The translations under genes and the position numbers were made by a program. Below, one piece after another: positions 1-6,336 of a stretch of 6,336 nt of DNA (position 1 is the first letter of the stretch; every line of letters starts with the position of its first letter). Source of the DNA: a virus (lineage: Duplodnaviria; Heunggongvirae; Uroviricota; Caudoviricetes); IMG/VR virus record IMGVR_UViG_3300029749_000251, positions 1 to 6,336 of that record; one strand, given 5' to 3'. The notes beneath the pieces were generated by a model. That model made no database searches, had not been told where the DNA came from, and saw nothing but the letters and a program-made list of their open reading frames with translations.

Positions 1-699
1 ACTTCAGCGGGTAGTCATCAAACTCACCATAACGAGCATCGTTGATGATGTATGCGATCACCACAAATATCACATCTGGACTAGTTCCGTCTTCATGCGC
101 AGGTATCTGTTCACGCCTCCCTTTCTGCAAATCCTAAAGATGAGATTTTGGGGTTTTGGGATATCTTTTTCTCCTCAGTTCTCTATCCATTCTACAAAGC
201 AGTAATGAACCATCACTATGTGAAAGTGAGGCATCCGCTACATTAAGCGCAGAGAAATGATGCAGTGGTGGGCGGACTGGCTTGATGAAAAGGTGGAGTG
301 AACCACCTTAGCTATCGAATGACACAAAGCCTTGTAATCCAGTGCAAAGTCTTGTGTGCCTCAGTTTTGTCTAAGCGTTCTACTGAAACATAGTAAAATC
401 GATAACGGCTGGAGATCATTCAATATCCGCACTATTGACTCCCCTCCAATAAACCGTGTAACGTACACCGTTTATAAGACAACCAAACAATAATAGAGCG
501 AGTGAAATCATCAGTCTCAAATACCATTTATTGACGCAATACTATCCAGTTCTGAACTAAATGACATAATTCGGTAATTAAATTAATGCATCGACATACC
601 TTATAGATACGCCCCAATAATATAATGCTAATCCTCTTTGAATAGAAAACGTTCAATACTCCTCACTAAATAGCATAGTATTTATATCTTCCCTTACAA

Positions 700-2683: not shown

Positions 2684-3009
2684 TATGCAGCCCTCACAAT
2701 ATAATTAAAGGCGATGTTACGTGGACGGTTTTCATTAGCTGTTGGCACGACACGAGAGGCGTCGAATCCAAGGTCATCGGTTTTGCCTATAGCAGTTGTG
2801 TTATTCGCCATTGTCGTTGATCGTGTTCCTGCATCGTAAAAAGCCCCTCTGATTGCATCAAAAGACATGCCGATCCCGCCATCTGCGAATCCCTCAATAT
2901 TTCTTATTGCATCCCCCTGTGAAGATAATAATTGTCGCCCGGCATCCACACCACGTCCGTCATCCCAGCCACGAATAAATTCACCGCGTAAAGTCGCACT
3001 CGAAGAGCA
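2683..3009 (-). pseudogene. 3' remnant of a side tail-fibre (Stf) gene: only the C-terminal ~108 codons, bounded upstream by an in-frame stop
   Basis: The translation ends ...FDASRVVPTANENRPRNIAFNYIVRAA, the conserved C-terminus of lambdoid side tail fibres, and contains LRGEFIRGWDDGRG (tail-collar-like motif) near its 5' end. Reading upstream in the same frame hits a stop at 3010-3012, and the sequence beyond is not fibre-like. No ATG is present; the listed start at 2949 is a GTG. Confidence 0.8.
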
Positions 3010-3191
3010 TCAGCCAACTGTTTCCTGATTTTTTCAGGTAACTCGTCGGCATCGCAGAAACAACAACGCTCGATCATGTTGAAAGCCGATTCGTAGAACT
3101 GTTTTTGCTGAGTGTCGCTGAGACAGGAAAAGAGCGACGTTACGATGATTTTATTAATTGCATTATCAAGTTCTTTTTCATCAAAAGTCAT
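2904..3191 (-). CDS. Small hypothetical protein (95 aa) with a Cys cluster (CCFC); its 3' end reads out of frame through the tail-fibre remnant (chimeric or truncated)
   Basis: ATG at 3189-3191 is preceded by AGGA at appropriate spacing on the minus strand. The N-terminal ~60 aa are encoded by unique DNA (3012-3191), while the last ~30 codons overlap Stf-remnant DNA in another frame, so the native C-terminus is likely lost. I recognise no family. Confidence 0.4.
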   Translation of the reverse strand: MTFDEKELDNAINKIIVTSLFSCLSDTQQKQFYESAFNMIERCCFCDADELPEKIRKQLADALRVRLYAVNLFVAGMTDVVWMPGDNYYLHRGMQ

Positions 3192-3444
3192 TTGATTTTC
3201 CTTTTATGTATACGGGCTTAAAAGGATACCACCGAGCCTGAAGTGGTGAAAAGACAGGCACATAACAGCTAAGTATTTTCAACCAGAGAGAATCCTTAGC
3301 GTTGTGGTGAATGCGGCTCAGCGTACGCGGGTTAAGGTTGAGGCTGACAGTCGACCTTCTGTGGATACCCACCCGCCTGGTGTGCAACCTTCGCCAGGCA
3401 CCGGGAGGCACCCGGCACCACAACTTTATGCTGTGTGTAGTCTT

Positions 3445-3491
3445 GGCGGTACCAGCTTGTACCCTTGCTTCCGGCTGGTACCGTCCTTTTT
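3445..3491 (+). terminator. Terminator-like hairpin: 10-bp perfect stem (CGGTACCAGC / GCTGGTACCG) followed by CC-TTTTT
   Basis: 3447-3456 pairs perfectly with 3474-3483, extendable by G-U/G-C pairs at 3445-3446 with 3484-3485. The loop is 17 nt. A T5 run lies at 3487-3491. Three GTACC copies, two of them full GGTACC palindromes (3448-3453, 3459-3463, 3477-3482), allow mutually exclusive alternative pairings. Confidence 0.35.
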
Positions 3492-3704
3492 GCAAAACAG
3501 AGAAGAGCATCACCGGACGACGGGCTCATAACCCAATCCATCCGGGCGGCTGCCACCGCAGGTGTTCTTCTCTGTTTTGTGGAGAAACTAACCGCCCCTA
3601 CGGGGGCATTTATGGAAATGTAATTGACTCAATAATCGCCGGACGGTGAGGGCTTCCTTTTACCCGAATTCAGCGCGGTGCAGCGCATATACGTGGAGAA
3701 CAAA

Positions 3705-4241
3705 ATGTCATTTATTAAAACTTTTTCCGGGAAGCATTTTTATTATGACAGGATAAATAAAGACGACATCGTTATTAACGATATCGCGGTTTCCCTTTCA
3801 AATATCTGTCGCTTTGCAGGACATCTTTCACACTTCTACAGTGTCGCCCAACATGCGGTGCTTTGCAGCCAGCTGGTGCCGCAGGAATTTGCTTTTGAAG
3901 CGTTAATGCATGATGCAACAGAAGCGTATTGCCAGGACATCCCCGCACCACTGAAACGACTTCTTCCTGACTATAAACGGATGGAAGAAAAAATAGACGC
4001 CGTAATACGTGAGAAATACGGGTTACCTCCTGTTATGAGCACGCCAGTGAAATATGCCGATCTCATTATGCTGGCAACCGAACGCCGCGATCTCGGGCTT
4101 GATGATGGCTCTTTCTGGCCTGTACTGGAAGGTATCCCGGCAACAGAGATGTTCAAAGTGATTCCACAGGCACCGGGCCATGCCTACGGGATGTTTATGG
4201 AACGTTTTAACGAGTTATCGGAGTTACGCAAATGCGCATGA
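3705..4241 (+). CDS. yfdR: HD-domain phosphohydrolase, YfdR-like 5'-deoxynucleotidase (178 aa from the ATG at 3705; the ORF track starts at an upstream GTG at 3678)
   Basis: The HD signature (…H…ALMHDATEAY…) is visible in the translation. GGAG at 3695-3698 lies 6 nt before the ATG at 3705, whereas the GTG at 3678 has no RBS. The length (178 aa) and operon context (followed by 120-aa and 101-aa ORFs, then an Xis-like gene) match my recollection of CPS-53 yfdR-yfdS-yfdT. Identity to K-12 YfdR was not verified by alignment. Confidence 0.8.
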   Translation: MSFIKTFSGKHFYYDRINKDDIVINDIAVSLSNICRFAGHLSHFYSVAQHAVLCSQLVPQEFAFEALMHDATEAYCQDIPAPLKRLLPDYKRMEEKIDAVIREKYGLPPVMSTPVKYADLIMLATERRDLGLDDGSFWPVLEGIPATEMFKVIPQAPGHAYGMFMERFNELSELRKCA

Positions 4242-4594
4242 ATGTTTTCGAAATGGAAGGGTTTCTTCGTGGGAGATGTGTACCGCGAGATCTGAAAGTA
4301 AATGAAACAGATGCTGAATACCTGGCGCGTAAATTCGATGCGCTTGAAGCTAAATGTGCAGCACAGGAAAACAAAGTAATACCAGTGTCAGCTGAACTGC
4401 CACCAGCAAATGAAAGTGTTTTGTTATTCGATGCTAACGGAGAAGGCTGGCTAATTGGCTGGCGTTCTCTCTGGTACACCTGGGAACAAAAAGAAACCGG
4501 AGAATGGCAGTGGACATTTCAGGTCGGGGACCTTGAAAACGTCAATATCACTCACTGGGCAATAATGCCAAAAGCACCGGAGGCTGGAGCATAA
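4232..4594 (+). CDS. yfdS: Small phage-associated protein (120 aa), YfdS-like, possibly DUF551 family
   Basis: Its start overlaps the yfdR-like stop (ATG 4232 versus TGA 4239-4241), with GGAG 8 nt upstream. Length and position match yfdS as recalled. The Trp-rich C-terminal segment (…WRSLWYTWEQKETGEWQW…THWAIMPKAP) is consistent with my memory of DUF551. Confidence 0.7.
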   Translation: MRMNVFEMEGFLRGRCVPRDLKVNETDAEYLARKFDALEAKCAAQENKVIPVSAELPPANESVLLFDANGEGWLIGWRSLWYTWEQKETGEWQWTFQVGDLENVNITHWAIMPKAPEAGA

Positions 4595-4899
4595 TGATCA
4601 CTTTTACCGACAAAGAACTGATTAAAGAAATTAAAGAGCGTATCAGCAGCCTTGACGTGCGAGACGATATTGAGCGCCGTGCTTATGAAATCGCACTCCT
4701 ATCGCTGGAAGTAGAACCAGATGAACGCGAAGCTTATGAATTATTCATGGAAAAGCGTTTCGGTGACTTAGTAGATCGTCGGAGAGCAAAAAACGGCGAT
4801 AACGAATACATGGCATGGGATATGACTCTCGGTTGGATCGTCTGGCAGCAACGAGCTGGTATCCATTTTTCAACAATGTCACAGCAAGAGGTGAAATAA
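4594..4899 (+). CDS. yfdT: Small hypothetical protein (101 aa), YfdT-like
   Basis: TAATG stop/start overlap with the preceding gene, with GGAG 5 nt upstream. The translation is charged and helical-looking. Length and position match yfdT as recalled. Confidence 0.65.
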   Translation: MITFTDKELIKEIKERISSLDVRDDIERRAYEIALLSLEVEPDEREAYELFMEKRFGDLVDRRRAKNGDNEYMAWDMTLGWIVWQQRAGIHFSTMSQQEVK

Positions 4900-4948
4900 T
4901 GGAGCCATACAGCCTCACACTCGATGAGGCCTGTTCATATCTGATAGA

Positions 4949-4972
4949 GCCGCTATATGGCGGTTTATTTTT
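4949..4972 (+). terminator. Candidate intrinsic terminator of the yfdRST-like operon (short GC stem followed by a U-rich tract)
   Basis: GCCGC (4949-4953) pairs with GCGGT (4960-4964) around a 6-nt loop, followed by TTATTTTT (4965-4972), 50 nt downstream of the yfdT-like stop. The stem is short, so this is weak to moderate. Confidence 0.35.
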
Positions 4973-4987
4973 GCCTGGAGAATTAAG

Positions 4988-5179
4988 ATGACCGATACCA
5001 GCCTGATTCCTGAGAAAGAAGTGATGAACAAGCTCGGTGTTTCATCACGTCAGACAATCTGGAACTATACCAAACGGCACGGATTTCCGAAGCCAGTCAG
5101 AACCCACCCCAAATCATACCTTCGTGAAGCTGTTGAGGGGTGGATTCTTAACGGTGGCGTTAATCAGAAATGCTCCTGA
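4988..5179 (+). CDS. AlpA/Xis-family small DNA-binding protein (prophage excisionase / transcriptional regulator)
   Basis: 63-aa ORF with GGAG 7 nt upstream. The translation (…KEVMNKLGVSSRQTIWNYTKRHGFPKPVR…YLREAVEGWI) fits the AlpA/Vis/TorI-type winged-helix pattern (hydrophobic-x-x-hydrophobic, TGLSRSTIY-like, FPKP). It occupies the position of torI/ypdJ in KplE1. Confidence 0.8.
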   Translation: MTDTSLIPEKEVMNKLGVSSRQTIWNYTKRHGFPKPVRTHPKSYLREAVEGWILNGGVNQKCS

Positions 5180-6336
5180 TGTGCCAGAACAATTTATCAG
5201 CGTGAAGCTCATACACTTTGCGCTGAGCCTCTATCCAGTCGTGTTTATTGTATACTGACATTATCCCGCCAAGTTCATGACCGAGCATTCGCTCAGTAAC
5301 ATGAGGCTCGACATTCATCTCGGACAGACGTGTAACAAGCGTTCTTCTGAAATCGTGTGTTCGCCAGTAACCTAGATCCATCCCTCCCCTTATTCTATTT
5401 ACGAATCGGTTGGCTGCAGCGATGCTGATCGGCTTGCTTATGTCTTCTCCAGGGAAAAGAACATCATTATACGTTGTCATGGCCTTTTCGAGGAAAGGCT
5501 TAATTTGTTCGAAGATTGGACGGCGGATAACATTACCCATCTTGCTATGCTCTTTCGGTACGGTCCATACGTTTTCCAGCAGGTCAAATTCTGTCTTTTT
5601 TGCCAGCCTAAGCTCTGAGAGCCTCGCCCCCCACAGCATAAGCATCTGATGAAGTAGCTTATTTGACGTAGACGCACGGCTTCTTTCAATAGCAAGCCAA
5701 ATCTTAGCCAGTTCGTGATACGACAGTACCCGATCCCCTACCTCAGCGCGGGAGCCGAAGTCCCTTGGTTGGATGCTCATAATTGCGCAACTATCTATCA
5801 ACTGACGCCGCATGCACCAACTTATTGCTGATCTTAGTTGACTTAGCACCTGCCTTGCTCGGCGTGGATTATCTCTTTCTTCTTCGGTAAGCAGGTCAAC
5901 CCATTGCTTAACCGTGATAGAAGATGCCGGACGATTAGGAAAGGCGTCATGCATGCGCTTCATAACCGTTGATCGGTAAAGTGCCTGGGTCTTTTCTCTG
6001 AGAGTTGTAGAGACGTAGTTGTCGAACCAGTAGTCGAGACACTGGGCGACCGTCATGGAGTTCTCCACCTTCTCTTCAAAATAAGTGCGTGGATCCGTTC
6101 CTGAGAAATAGAGCTTTCGCAAGTCAGCAGTGATCTGTCTGGCATCCTTCAAAGACAGGGATGGGTATCGACCAAGCCCAAGTCGATTAGGCTTGCCATG
6201 CCAGCGATAGCGGTACTGGAACTGGATGACCCCCTTCGGTGAAATTCGTACGCTGAGGCCATCGGCATCAGCCACTTCTTGTGGGCCCGAATATGGTTTA
6301 CCATAAATAGTACGCAGTTTTGTGTCGCTTATAGCC
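5160..6336 (-). CDS. int: P4-type tyrosine integrase (site-specific recombinase), N-terminus a few codons beyond the window end
   Basis: The N-terminal arm-binding region (…DTKLR…GLSVRISPKGVIQFQYRYRWHGKPNRLGLGRYPSLSLKDARQ) matches the P4/CP4-57 integrase pattern. The C-terminal catalytic residues are visible: R in WGARLSEL, HxxR in THDFRRT, H/W in MLGHELGG, and the Tyr nucleophile in VYNKHDW. The frame stays open from 6275 to 6336 (…AISDTKLRTIYGKPYSGPQEV-ADADG…), so the listed GTG at 6273-6275 is internal and the true start is off-window. Confidence 0.95.
   Translation of the reverse strand, partial: AISDTKLRTIYGKPYSGPQEVADADGLSVRISPKGVIQFQYRYRWHGKPNRLGLGRYPSLSLKDARQITADLRKLYFSGTDPRTYFEEKVENSMTVAQCLDYWFDNYVSTTLREKTQALYRSTVMKRMHDAFPNRPASSITVKQWVDLLTEEERDNPRRARQVLSQLRSAISWCMRRQLIDSCAIMSIQPRDFGSRAEVGDRVLSYHELAKIWLAIERSRASTSNKLLHQMLMLWGARLSELRLAKKTEFDLLENVWTVPKEHSKMGNVIRRPIFEQIKPFLEKAMTTYNDVLFPGEDISKPISIAAANRFVNRIRGGMDLGYWRTHDFRRTLVTRLSEMNVEPHVTERMLGHELGGIMSVYNKHDWIEAQRKVYELHADKLFWHIRSISD

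Follow-up and report, generated by a model that had tools for sequence, protein, structure and literature searches.

The yfdQ-less yfdR-yfdS-yfdT cassette of a small prophage remnant is probably an accessory unit of SfV/SfII/e14-type temperate phages

The best-described relatives of the locus considered here are the yfdQ, yfdR, yfdS and yfdT genes of Escherichia coli K-12, which in multicopy inhibit replication initiation at oriC (Noguchi and Katayama 2016, PMC4776307). K-12 YfdR is an HD-fold 5'-deoxynucleotidase with low nucleotide affinity, whose substrates are ordinary (d)NMPs; it binds domain I of DnaA in a Phe46-dependent manner and is a competitor of DiaA and DnaB (PMC4776307). The minimal set for blocking initiation consists of yfdQ and yfdR plus either of yfdS and yfdT, and suppression of hda-185 similarly needs yfdS or yfdT besides yfdQ and yfdR (PMC4776307). 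In pull-downs YfdQ, YfdS and YfdT displayed no high affinity for YfdR or DnaA (PMC4776307). The inhibition was seen on overexpression and is, according to its authors, possibly an artefact; deletion of yfdQRST from K-12 left both initiation and hydroxyurea resistance unaffected, and a stress-specific role was proposed (PMC4776307). A preliminary description of the present DNA had mentioned the deoxynucleotidase activity, the DnaA binding and the inhibition of initiation by yfdQRST, in agreement with this paper. A second point of reference is provided by the mosaic Ea22/DUF551 proteins of phages (PMC10834534).

The window, i.e. the entire stretch of 6,336 nucleotides analysed here, is a prophage remnant of about 6 kb between dacD and sbcB (Table 1). 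The ORF listing and the sequence reveal three consecutive ORFs on the same strand, the first of which had initially been read from GTG 3678. This is 27 nt too far upstream, as the ribosome-binding site belongs to the next candidate: given that GGAGA lies 7 nt upstream of ATG 3705 and that no Shine-Dalgarno sequence was seen before 3678, yfdR almost certainly starts at ATG 3705, which is also the RefSeq start both in a 100%-identical genome and in K-12. The two overlaps noticed earlier, namely ATG 4232 just before the TGA at 4239-4241 and TAATG at 4592-4596, are both present. At the yfdR/yfdS junction (ATGCGCATGA) ATG 4232 lies 10 nt inside yfdR, and a further in-frame ATG at 4238 forms a classic ATGA overlap with the yfdR stop codon. 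Shine-Dalgarno sequences (GGAG in both cases) precede ATG 4232 by 8 nt, inside yfdR, and ATG 4594 by 5 nt, inside yfdS. The overlaps of stop and start codons, together with ribosome-binding sites within the upstream cistrons, are those of an operon, and yfdR-yfdS-yfdT is thus predicted to be translationally coupled.

Table 1. Features of the window discussed in the text
Feature	Coordinates	Strand	Description	Remarks
95-aa ORF	2904..3191	-	First 67 aa correspond to PHROG 3311 (SfII_36-like, adjoins the block)	Tail enters a tail-fibre gene fragment
Structured non-coding block	3225..3600	+	STnc100-like RNA domain (3271-3494), then a second long hairpin
Cassette 5' leader	3594..3704	+	Left end is the mosaic junction 3591/3594	Site of the 1306-bp yfdP-yfdQ segment in K-12/SfV
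yfdR	3705..4241	+	HD-domain 5'-deoxynucleotidase (RefSeq product), 178 aa	WP_000008235.1
yfdS	4232..4594	+	120 aa; N-terminal helix, then DUF551 domain	10-nt overlap with yfdR
yfdT	4594..4899	+	101 aa, all-helical; N-terminal module and portable core	1-nt overlap with yfdS
Right mosaic junction	4934..4974	+	K-12/SfV/SfII homology stops at 4934-4938	Terminator-like hairpin 4947-4966 with T-run
AlpA-like HTH/excisionase-type gene	4988..5179	+	63 aa; weak match to Pfam Phage_AlpA	PHROG 66 'excisionase and transcriptional regulator'
Tyrosine integrase	5160..6336	-	Arm-DNA-bind_3 domain	Runs past the right end of the window; abuts sbcB

Alignment to the K-12 proteins upholds the proposed identity of the genes: YfdR, YfdS and YfdT are 98, 94 and 95% identical to their K-12 counterparts and have exactly the same lengths (178, 120 and 101 aa), with dN/dS values of 0.08, 0.16 and 0.10, respectively. 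Because the K-12 lengths are kept at such identities and with low dN/dS, we regard the three ORFs as real genes, as opposed to chance ORFs, and by sequence comparison they are shown to be under purifying selection. Antisense ORFs at 4207-4479 and 3971-4156 are without a Pfam match and were taken as non-coding.

YfdR aligns with K-12 YfdR without gaps (174 of the 178 residues identical; the substitutions are K16R, N151K, L155Q and D169E) and falls into PHROG 318 (E = 3.8e-109). The suggestion that an HD-domain enzyme leads the operon is supported by the complete H...HD...D motif (H50, H69-D70, D119), whose residues are aligned in the match to the HD-domain structure 2GZ4 (E = 1.5e-12). The enzymatic label follows the description of the K-12 protein (PMC4776307) and the RefSeq and PHROG names. 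With YfbR, the housekeeping HD-domain 5'-deoxynucleotidase of E. coli, YfdR shares the HD fold, the motif and the reported reaction class, and profiles match it weakly in the motif region, but the nucleotide affinity of YfdR is much lower (PMC4776307). It also scores below the curated cut-offs of the YfbR profiles (PF12917, 24.4 versus 25.9 bits; NCBIfam PRK03826, 19.9 versus 122 bits), and it appears to be a distant paralogue or relative of YfbR of phage origin, not a YfbR itself. Both the dNMP phosphatase activity and the binding to DnaA domain I are known for K-12 YfdR only and are predicted for the protein encoded here.

The upstream partner yfdQ had been suspected to be missing, and this proves correct. 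Homology to K-12 begins at 3594, 17 nt past the position of the yfdQ stop codon, and tblastn searches of the window with K-12 YfdQ, YfdP and TorI returned chance-level matches only. Comparison with SfV shows that window positions 2990-3591 correspond to SfV locus positions 4799-5400 and 3594-4934 to SfV 6707-8047, such that the 1306-bp yfdP-yfdQ segment of K-12 and SfV is absent at a clean junction, across which phage SfII is collinear. Decay of the present remnant was considered as the cause of the missing yfdQ and rejected, as this junction is clean and identical to that of SfII. The same yfdQ-less junction is seen in 468 of 5,426 complete E. coli genomes as well as in phages SfII and SKA5; hence, this layout is a common natural variant and is not peculiar to the locus. 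As yfdQ (DUF2303) is required yet absent from the window, leaving the minimal gene set of PMC4776307 incomplete, the only documented phenotype is not expected from the locus as it stands. Conversely, since the known phenotype needs yfdQ, this locus and the SfII-type phages are natural tests of whether yfdRST acts alone.

The three genes form a cassette of 1.34 kb (3594-4934) with sharp mosaic borders. Beyond its right border, the AlpA-like gene (a helix-turn-helix transcriptional regulator in RefSeq) fills the place of torI/xis of K-12, SfV and SfII. The remnant lacks repressor, replication, lysis and most structural genes; the ORF at 2904..3191 is a deletion scar where immunity, replication, lysis and structural genes were removed. 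A scan of the + strand from 2800 to 5300, restricted to the sigma-70 consensus, found no sigma-70-like promoter, and inspection of the leader by eye revealed poor hexamers only. Terminator-like hairpins flank the cassette, two upstream and one downstream. Weak or activator-dependent transcription starting within 3594-3704, or read-through of the upstream terminators, might still allow expression. Given the lack of a recognisable promoter, the hairpins on either side and the absence of yfdQ, the cassette is most likely silent cargo in this remnant.

It could alternatively have been domesticated, with low-level expression of yfdRST, or its expression under stress, aiding the cell through oxidative-stress tolerance conferred by YfdS or through slower initiation under stress. 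Deletion of yfdS in K-12 lowers survival of H2O2 (PMC3105296), which, like the stress-specific role proposed by Noguchi and Katayama, favours such a benefit. The perfectly intact ORFs with dN/dS well below 1, and the presence of the junction between yfdT and the AlpA-like gene, and thus of this very remnant, in 75 genomes (and in these only), could each owe something to selection in the host rather than to recent descent alone. However, phage lineages were compared to obtain the low dN/dS, which selection in the phage explains equally well; besides, the K-12 deletion was without effect on initiation and hydroxyurea resistance, the terminator-flanked cassette shows no promoter, and the yfdQ needed for the initiation phenotype is gone. 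We therefore consider host benefit unlikely and retain silent cargo as the better account of the remnant.

YfdS is identical to K-12 YfdS at 113 of 120 residues and belongs to PHROG 583 (E = 8e-81); its residues 50-117 match DUF551 (PF04448) at 22.2 bits, against a gathering score of 22. In its relatives this C-terminal domain follows N-termini of Ead/Ea22 type. YfdT (96 of 101 residues identical to K-12 YfdT; PHROG 660, E = 7e-30) matches no model in Pfam or NCBIfam, where no profile family exists for it. Its residues 1-43 form an N-terminal module and residues ~40-90 a core of about 50 aa with the invariant residues E49, Y72, W75, D76, W81 and W84; each half has its own, separate matches among other proteins. 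Among the 95 proteins scanned, the query included, the core co-occurs with DUF551 in 15, with Ead_Ea22 in three and with a dATP/dGTP pyrophosphohydrolase domain in two. AlphaFold2 models, built from alignments of 19 sequences, are too uncertain to interpret (mean pLDDT 61.9 for the all-helical YfdT model and 48.5 for YfdS); Foldseek searches of BFVD with them found nothing at E <= 0.001 (best E ~0.06-0.85), the YfdS hits being merely weak DUF551 look-alikes, and sequence searches of the PDB with both proteins gave chance-level matches only. YfdS and YfdT appear to be shuffled modules belonging to the Ead/Ea22-DUF551 mosaic network that lambdoid exo-xis proteins form, with the YfdT core as a recurrent domain still without a name.

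The neighborhood of yfdR is comparably fluid. In O157:H7 it is followed by a different 116-aa gene and a methyltransferase pseudogene, in strain SCU-122 by an unrelated 288-aa gene after a gap of 109 nt, and in strain FDAARGOS_1256 the yfdT position is occupied by a 206-aa protein annotated as DUF551 domain-containing. This free swapping of the genes after yfdR between prophages disfavours an obligate three-protein machine. In addition, YfdR-family enzymes occur without YfdS and YfdT as neighbours in 332 phage records, including those of virulent Caulobacter, Pseudomonas and Bacillus phages. One could accordingly view the three genes as unrelated morons, with YfdR acting as a solo nucleotide-pool enzyme, YfdS and YfdT having other roles or none, and the overlaps reflecting the usual packing of phage genes. 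The variable genes behind yfdR, the many phage groups with YfdR homologues alone and the pull-downs cited above are consistent with this view. Against it, yfdS or yfdT is needed with yfdQ and yfdR for hda-185 suppression (PMC4776307), the 1.34-kb unit travels as a single block whose borders are identical in K-12, SfV, SfII and the window, and at least 80% of the three-gene stretch is found in 1,892 genomes; the view is conceivable, and we hold it to be doubtful.

The preliminary description had regarded a role in host takeover, superinfection exclusion or anti-defence as plausible. For the latter two, YfdR, partnered by YfdS and YfdT, would have to act on a nucleotide pool or signal by depleting or altering it. 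HD-fold nucleotide hydrolases are indeed widespread among unrelated phages, the cassette sits in an accessory, moron-rich part of the genome, and a dATP/dGTP pyrophosphohydrolase domain is at times found fused to the YfdT core and to DUF551 (PMC10834534). Nevertheless, none of the three proteins has a match in PADLOC-DB 2.0 at E <= 0.01, a literature search found no link of YfdR, YfdS, YfdT or DUF551 to defence or counter-defence, and the freely exchanged genes after yfdR likewise speak against the proposal. The reported substrates of YfdR are ordinary (d)NMPs bound with low affinity (PMC4776307), and deletion of yfdR in an engineered strain did not significantly raise the CMP yield. Such a role is very improbable.

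A different possibility is that YfdR, YfdS and YfdT are a self-sufficient core without YfdQ, as the yfdQ-less form is carried by SfII and the 468 genomes. In it DUF551 and the YfdT core would be portable adaptors directing nucleotide-hydrolysing enzymes to a host target such as DnaA or the replisome, and the upstream block, as an STnc100-like RNA and double terminator, would gate the module together with xis-int. If this were true, the enzymes so directed would be the HD dNMPase here and dATP/dGTP pyrophosphohydrolases in the fused relatives; the idea is speculative and we think it quite improbable.

That the operon is preceded by a structured block, as noted at the outset, is substantiated by a fold z-score of -7.4 and a multi-stem domain (3271-3494) within 3225-3600. 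A terminator at ~3444-3494 ends the STnc100-like domain, and a second long hairpin with a U-run follows at ~3490-3590. The Rfam model STnc100 (RF02076) matches over its full length (model positions 1-206) at 42.3 bits (E = 8.3e-7), below the gathering threshold of 47; the copies in SfII (39.5 bits) and e14 (29.2 bits) also score under it. Conservation of the block extends to e14 ('ymfH'), SfV, SfII and further prophages, with stems kept and loops variable; its place is invariably between the immunity region and the leftward genes terminating in xis-int, and in e14 it sits directly before xisE-intE. A 112-aa ORF across it is broken by indels and marked as frameshifted in RefSeq, and ORFs at 3311-3649 and 3181-3513, which are without a Pfam match, were taken as non-coding. 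The block resembles the prophage sRNA STnc100. The protein 'genes' that have been annotated upstream of yfdR, namely ymfH in e14 and SfII_35, seem to be a structured element of non-coding RNA and terminator.

In light of the above, we propose, with a probability of about 0.8, that yfdRST are intact orthologues of the K-12 genes and make up an accessory cassette of SfV/SfII/e14-type temperate phages, silent in the remnant and with a replication or dNMP role in the phage. In complete phages the cassette lies on the cI strand, downstream of the structured RNA/terminator block and immediately upstream of xis-int, a single strand in SfII and SfV carrying cI, block, (yfdPQ), yfdRST, xis and int in this order. 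In a live phage the cassette would be read within a leftward transcript that extends into xis/int, ribosomes moving on from each of the yfdR-yfdS-yfdT cistrons to the next; during induction or infection it might restrain the initiation of host replication, alter the dNMP pool, or both. YfdS and YfdT would be interchangeable small-domain accessory proteins of the Ead/Ea22-DUF551 network and not dedicated subunits. The finding is correct yet unremarkable: the genes, the HD enzyme and the DnaA link have been described before, and the layout is widespread.

Among known systems, K-12 CPS-53 (KplE1) has the same order, lengths and overlaps of yfdR-yfdS-yfdT and the same 111-nt leader, with a DNA identity of 95.8%. 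It differs in having yfdP-yfdQ directly upstream, torI and then dsdC downstream, and an argW site, where the window has the structured block directly upstream, the AlpA-like gene with a different integrase downstream, and the sbcB site. Shigella phage SfII (NC_021857; SfII_34-32) displays an identical layout of block-yfdR-yfdS-yfdT without yfdP/yfdQ, and window positions 3225-4938 are collinear with it at 98.6% identity; however, SfII is a complete phage genome, in which cI-cro lies upstream of these genes and an xis-int-gtr module of its own follows downstream on the same strand, whereas in the window the immunity region is gone and the integrase is an unrelated one, encoded on the other strand. 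The match of the block to the STnc100/PasD model takes in the closing helix, the CCGGG/CCCGG hairpin and the terminator, and the block is carried by prophages like the described members, but none of the copies tested reaches the threshold, there is a second long hairpin, and the position is a fixed one before the xis-int arm instead of downstream of stx. In its position the cassette corresponds to the exo-xis ('ea') accessory region of lambda, which likewise lies between early-left genes and xis-int and contains small proteins with shuffled modules. YfdS has the DUF551 domain in common with Ea22 variant V2; its relatives bear Ead_Ea22 N-termini and those of YfdT contain DUF551 or Ead_Ea22, whereas YfdS and YfdT themselves, for which no lysis-lysogeny effect is known, are without an Ead_Ea22 domain.

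The proteins encoded by yfdR, yfdS and yfdT are equal in length to their counterparts in Escherichia coli K-12 and are respectively 98%, 94% and 95% identical to them, bearing out the identity that the preliminary description had proposed from sequence alone. What was correctly recognized is an already known and common prophage cassette: of 5,426 complete E. coli genomes searched, 3,262 have a match to some of the three-gene stretch and 1,892 have 80% of it or more. Nei-Gojobori estimates of dN/dS against K-12 (0.08 for yfdR, 0.16 for yfdS and 0.10 for yfdT) show these to be genuine genes under purifying selection. YfdR displays the anticipated catalytic residues of an intact HD motif (H50, H69-D70 and D119), which line up with those of the HD-domain structure 2GZ4, and matches PHROG 318 ("deoxyribonucleoside 5' monophosphate phosphatase") with E = 3.8e-109. 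Its scores against the YfbR families stay under their curated cut-offs; YfdR is therefore a paralogue of phage type rather than a YfbR.

The region is 100% identical to a stretch of E. coli WP2-W18-ESBL-10, in which it constitutes a short prophage remnant between dacD and sbcB (see table).

Features of the prophage remnant from left to right, with window coordinates
Feature	Coordinates	Strand	Source
AT-rich stretch, unannotated
Tail-fibre assembly gene and tail-fibre fragment
Small gene		−
"Frameshifted hypothetical" ORF (structured block)	3225-3600	+
yfdR ORF	3678/3705-4241	+	ORF list and raw sequence
yfdS ORF	4232-4594	+	ORF list and raw sequence
yfdT ORF	4594-4899	+	ORF list and raw sequence
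HTH gene
Tyrosine integrase adjoining sbcB

The start of yfdR should be placed at ATG 3705 rather than at the originally proposed GTG 3678, because GGAGA lies 7 nt upstream of the former, no RBS-like sequence is seen before the latter, and RefSeq uses 3705 in both the 100%-identical genome and K-12. The two stop/start overlaps reported earlier match the sequence exactly: ATG 4232 lies within ATGCGCATGA, with the yfdR stop at 4239-4241, and TAATG at 4592-4596 joins yfdS to yfdT. The GGAG sites of yfdS and yfdT are each located inside the preceding cistron; therefore, the layout expected for translational coupling is present. A 58-aa ORF in another frame (4815-4991, +) overlaps the end of yfdT and is probably no gene here; its first part corresponds to the extended N-terminus with which xis is annotated in phage SfV and Shigella phage SfII, and this homology stops at 4934-4938.

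Pairwise BLAST against K-12, SfV and SfII revealed sharp borders to the cassette: window 3594-4934 aligns collinearly to both K-12 and SfV, window 2990-3591 does so to the SfV sequence upstream of yfdP, and the intervening 1,306 bp of SfV, with yfdP-yfdQ, correspond to 2 nt in the window. Searching the window by tblastn with YfdQ, YfdP and TorI gave nothing above chance level, which together with this junction confirms the suspected lack of yfdQ. The same yfdQ-less layout is seen in the complete SfII genome (98.6% identical, in a single collinear piece), in Escherichia phage SKA5 and in 468 complete E. coli genomes picked up with a 241-nt probe that spans the junction; this wide occurrence marks the lack of yfdQ as a standing natural variant, and decay of the window locus is rejected as the cause. 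The right-hand junction, from yfdT to an AlpA-like gene, is rarer, and its 75 genomes represent the frequency of this particular remnant.

Within the structured block upstream of the cassette, window 3271-3494 is a full-length match to Rfam STnc100, a prophage sRNA family (42.3 bits against a gathering threshold of 47, E = 8e-7), with the SfII and e14 copies scoring lower. STnc100 and the related PasD have been described as sRNAs carried by prophages (bioRxiv 10.64898/2026.05.13.724894; PMC12370729). The segment 3255-3610 folds far better than shuffled sequences (z = -7.4), forming a multi-stem domain with a GUGGUG/CACCAC closure and two hairpins that each carry a U-run, first a terminator and then a second, long one. 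When eight copies are aligned, the stems are kept, the loops vary, and 1-nt indels disrupt the ORF predicted there. These frame-breaking indels and conserved stems disfavour the block's annotation as a protein (YmfH in the e14 locus L008, 2496-2880; SfII_35 in the SfII locus L003, 5001-5376; the "frameshifted hypothetical" here), its behaviour being RNA-like rather than protein-like, that of a non-coding RNA with a double terminator. In strain cS91a (locus L010, ~2590-2715, versus window ~3320-3425) the interior within the GTGGTG...CACCAC closing helix is unrelated sequence, with both flanks and both terminators retained; thus, the RNA core swaps like a cassette. The block invariably lies between the immunity region and the arm ending in xis-int, a placement suggestive of a role in gating this arm.

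YfdS comprises an N-terminal helix and DUF551, a domain for which we found no functional characterisation in the literature and which has been noted as a portable component of mosaic Ea22 proteins (PMC10834534); in relatives of YfdS this C-terminal domain follows N-termini of the Ead/Ea22 type or of other kinds. YfdT has two parts that are shuffled independently: residues 1-43 turn up N-terminally in many unrelated proteins, and residues ~40-90 form a conserved core (DER.AYELFMEKRFG..VDRRRAKNGD.EYMAWDM..GWI.W, encoded within 4594-4899) with invariant E49, Y72, W75, D76, W81 and W84. This ~50-aa core, a portable, unnamed domain covered by no Pfam model, occurs in 336 clusters (50% identity), located at either terminus or internally. 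Among 95 proteins scanned for partners of the core (the query and 94 others), 15 also contain DUF551, three Ead_Ea22 and two a dATP/dGTP pyrophosphohydrolase domain. In light of this module sharing, both YfdS and YfdT belong to a mosaic network of exo-xis-region proteins. The structure predictions proposed earlier for the two small proteins were run singly and proved uninformative (pLDDT 48.5 for YfdS, 61.9 for YfdT), and neither had a significant Foldseek or PDB match. Deletion of yfdS is reported to lower H2O2 survival (Wang et al., PMC3105296).

The genes following yfdR vary: a different 116-aa gene and then a methyltransferase pseudogene in O157:H7; yfdS and then, in the yfdT position, a 206-aa protein with a DUF551-domain annotation in FDAARGOS_1256; and a 109-nt gap and then an unrelated 288-aa gene in SCU-122. 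Enzymes of the YfdR family are also encoded in 332 phage records, among them large virulent Caulobacter, Pseudomonas and Bacillus phages. Thus, YfdR is the constant element and the small downstream genes are interchangeable.

Elsewhere in the remnant, a 95-aa ORF (2904-3191, −) matches PHROG 3311 (SfII_36-like gene) over its first 67 aa, and its tail overlaps the tail-fibre gene fragment (2683-2949, −); this ORF is a deletion scar, where loss of the remaining prophage brought the immunity-proximal region up against the tail-fibre genes. At the left end, window 244-372 shares 86-88% identity with sequence of the K-12 prophage CPS-53 that comprises the intS 3' end and the spacer preceding gtrA, and represents what is left of a second and distinct integrase and attachment region. 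A 359-aa ORF (892-1971, +) in DNA of ~30% GC looks like a multi-pass membrane protein; it has no match in Pfam, NCBIfam, PHROG or PADLOC and no tblastn match among 50,697 phage records, carries no annotation in the RefSeq genome that is identical here, and is limited to 74 of 5,426 E. coli genomes. Its position beyond the tail-fibre assembly gene is that of the serotype-specific gtr glucosyltransferase in SfII and SfV, so modification of the O antigen is a possible function for this uncharacterised gene.

The earlier statements that YfdR binds DnaA and that overexpressed yfdQRST inhibits initiation are accurate: Noguchi and Katayama found yfdQRST as a multicopy suppressor of hda-185, with YfdR alone binding DnaA domains I-II in a Phe46-dependent manner (PMC4776307). 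In the same study a plasmid without yfdQ gave no suppression, deleting the yfdQRST genes had no effect, the overexpression effect may be an artefact according to its authors, and YfdR is described as homologous to YfbR in structure, with nucleotides bound at much lower affinity (PMC4776307). The remnant hence lacks the gene needed for the sole published phenotype. An anti-defence role, as earlier suggested, is unsupported, a PADLOC search of YfdR, YfdS and YfdT being negative. No sigma-70-like promoter was detected on the + strand of window 2800-5300, two terminator-like hairpins precede the cassette, and a third follows it (4947-4966), just beyond the right mosaic junction; the remnant has no repressor and no obvious means of starting yfdRST transcription, and the cassette is probably silent here.

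In SfII and SfV, the gene order on one strand runs from cI and a terminator through a small opposite-strand gene and the structured block to yfdR, yfdS and yfdT, and then to xis, int and the gtr genes, with yfdP-yfdQ between the block and yfdR in SfV only; in e14 the same block directly precedes xisE-intE. Therefore, the cassette is the positional equivalent of the lambda exo-xis accessory region. The best-supported reading is that the cassette serves SfV/SfII/e14-type phages as an accessory module, probably read together with xis-int there, and would act on the dNMP pool and/or the initiation of host replication.
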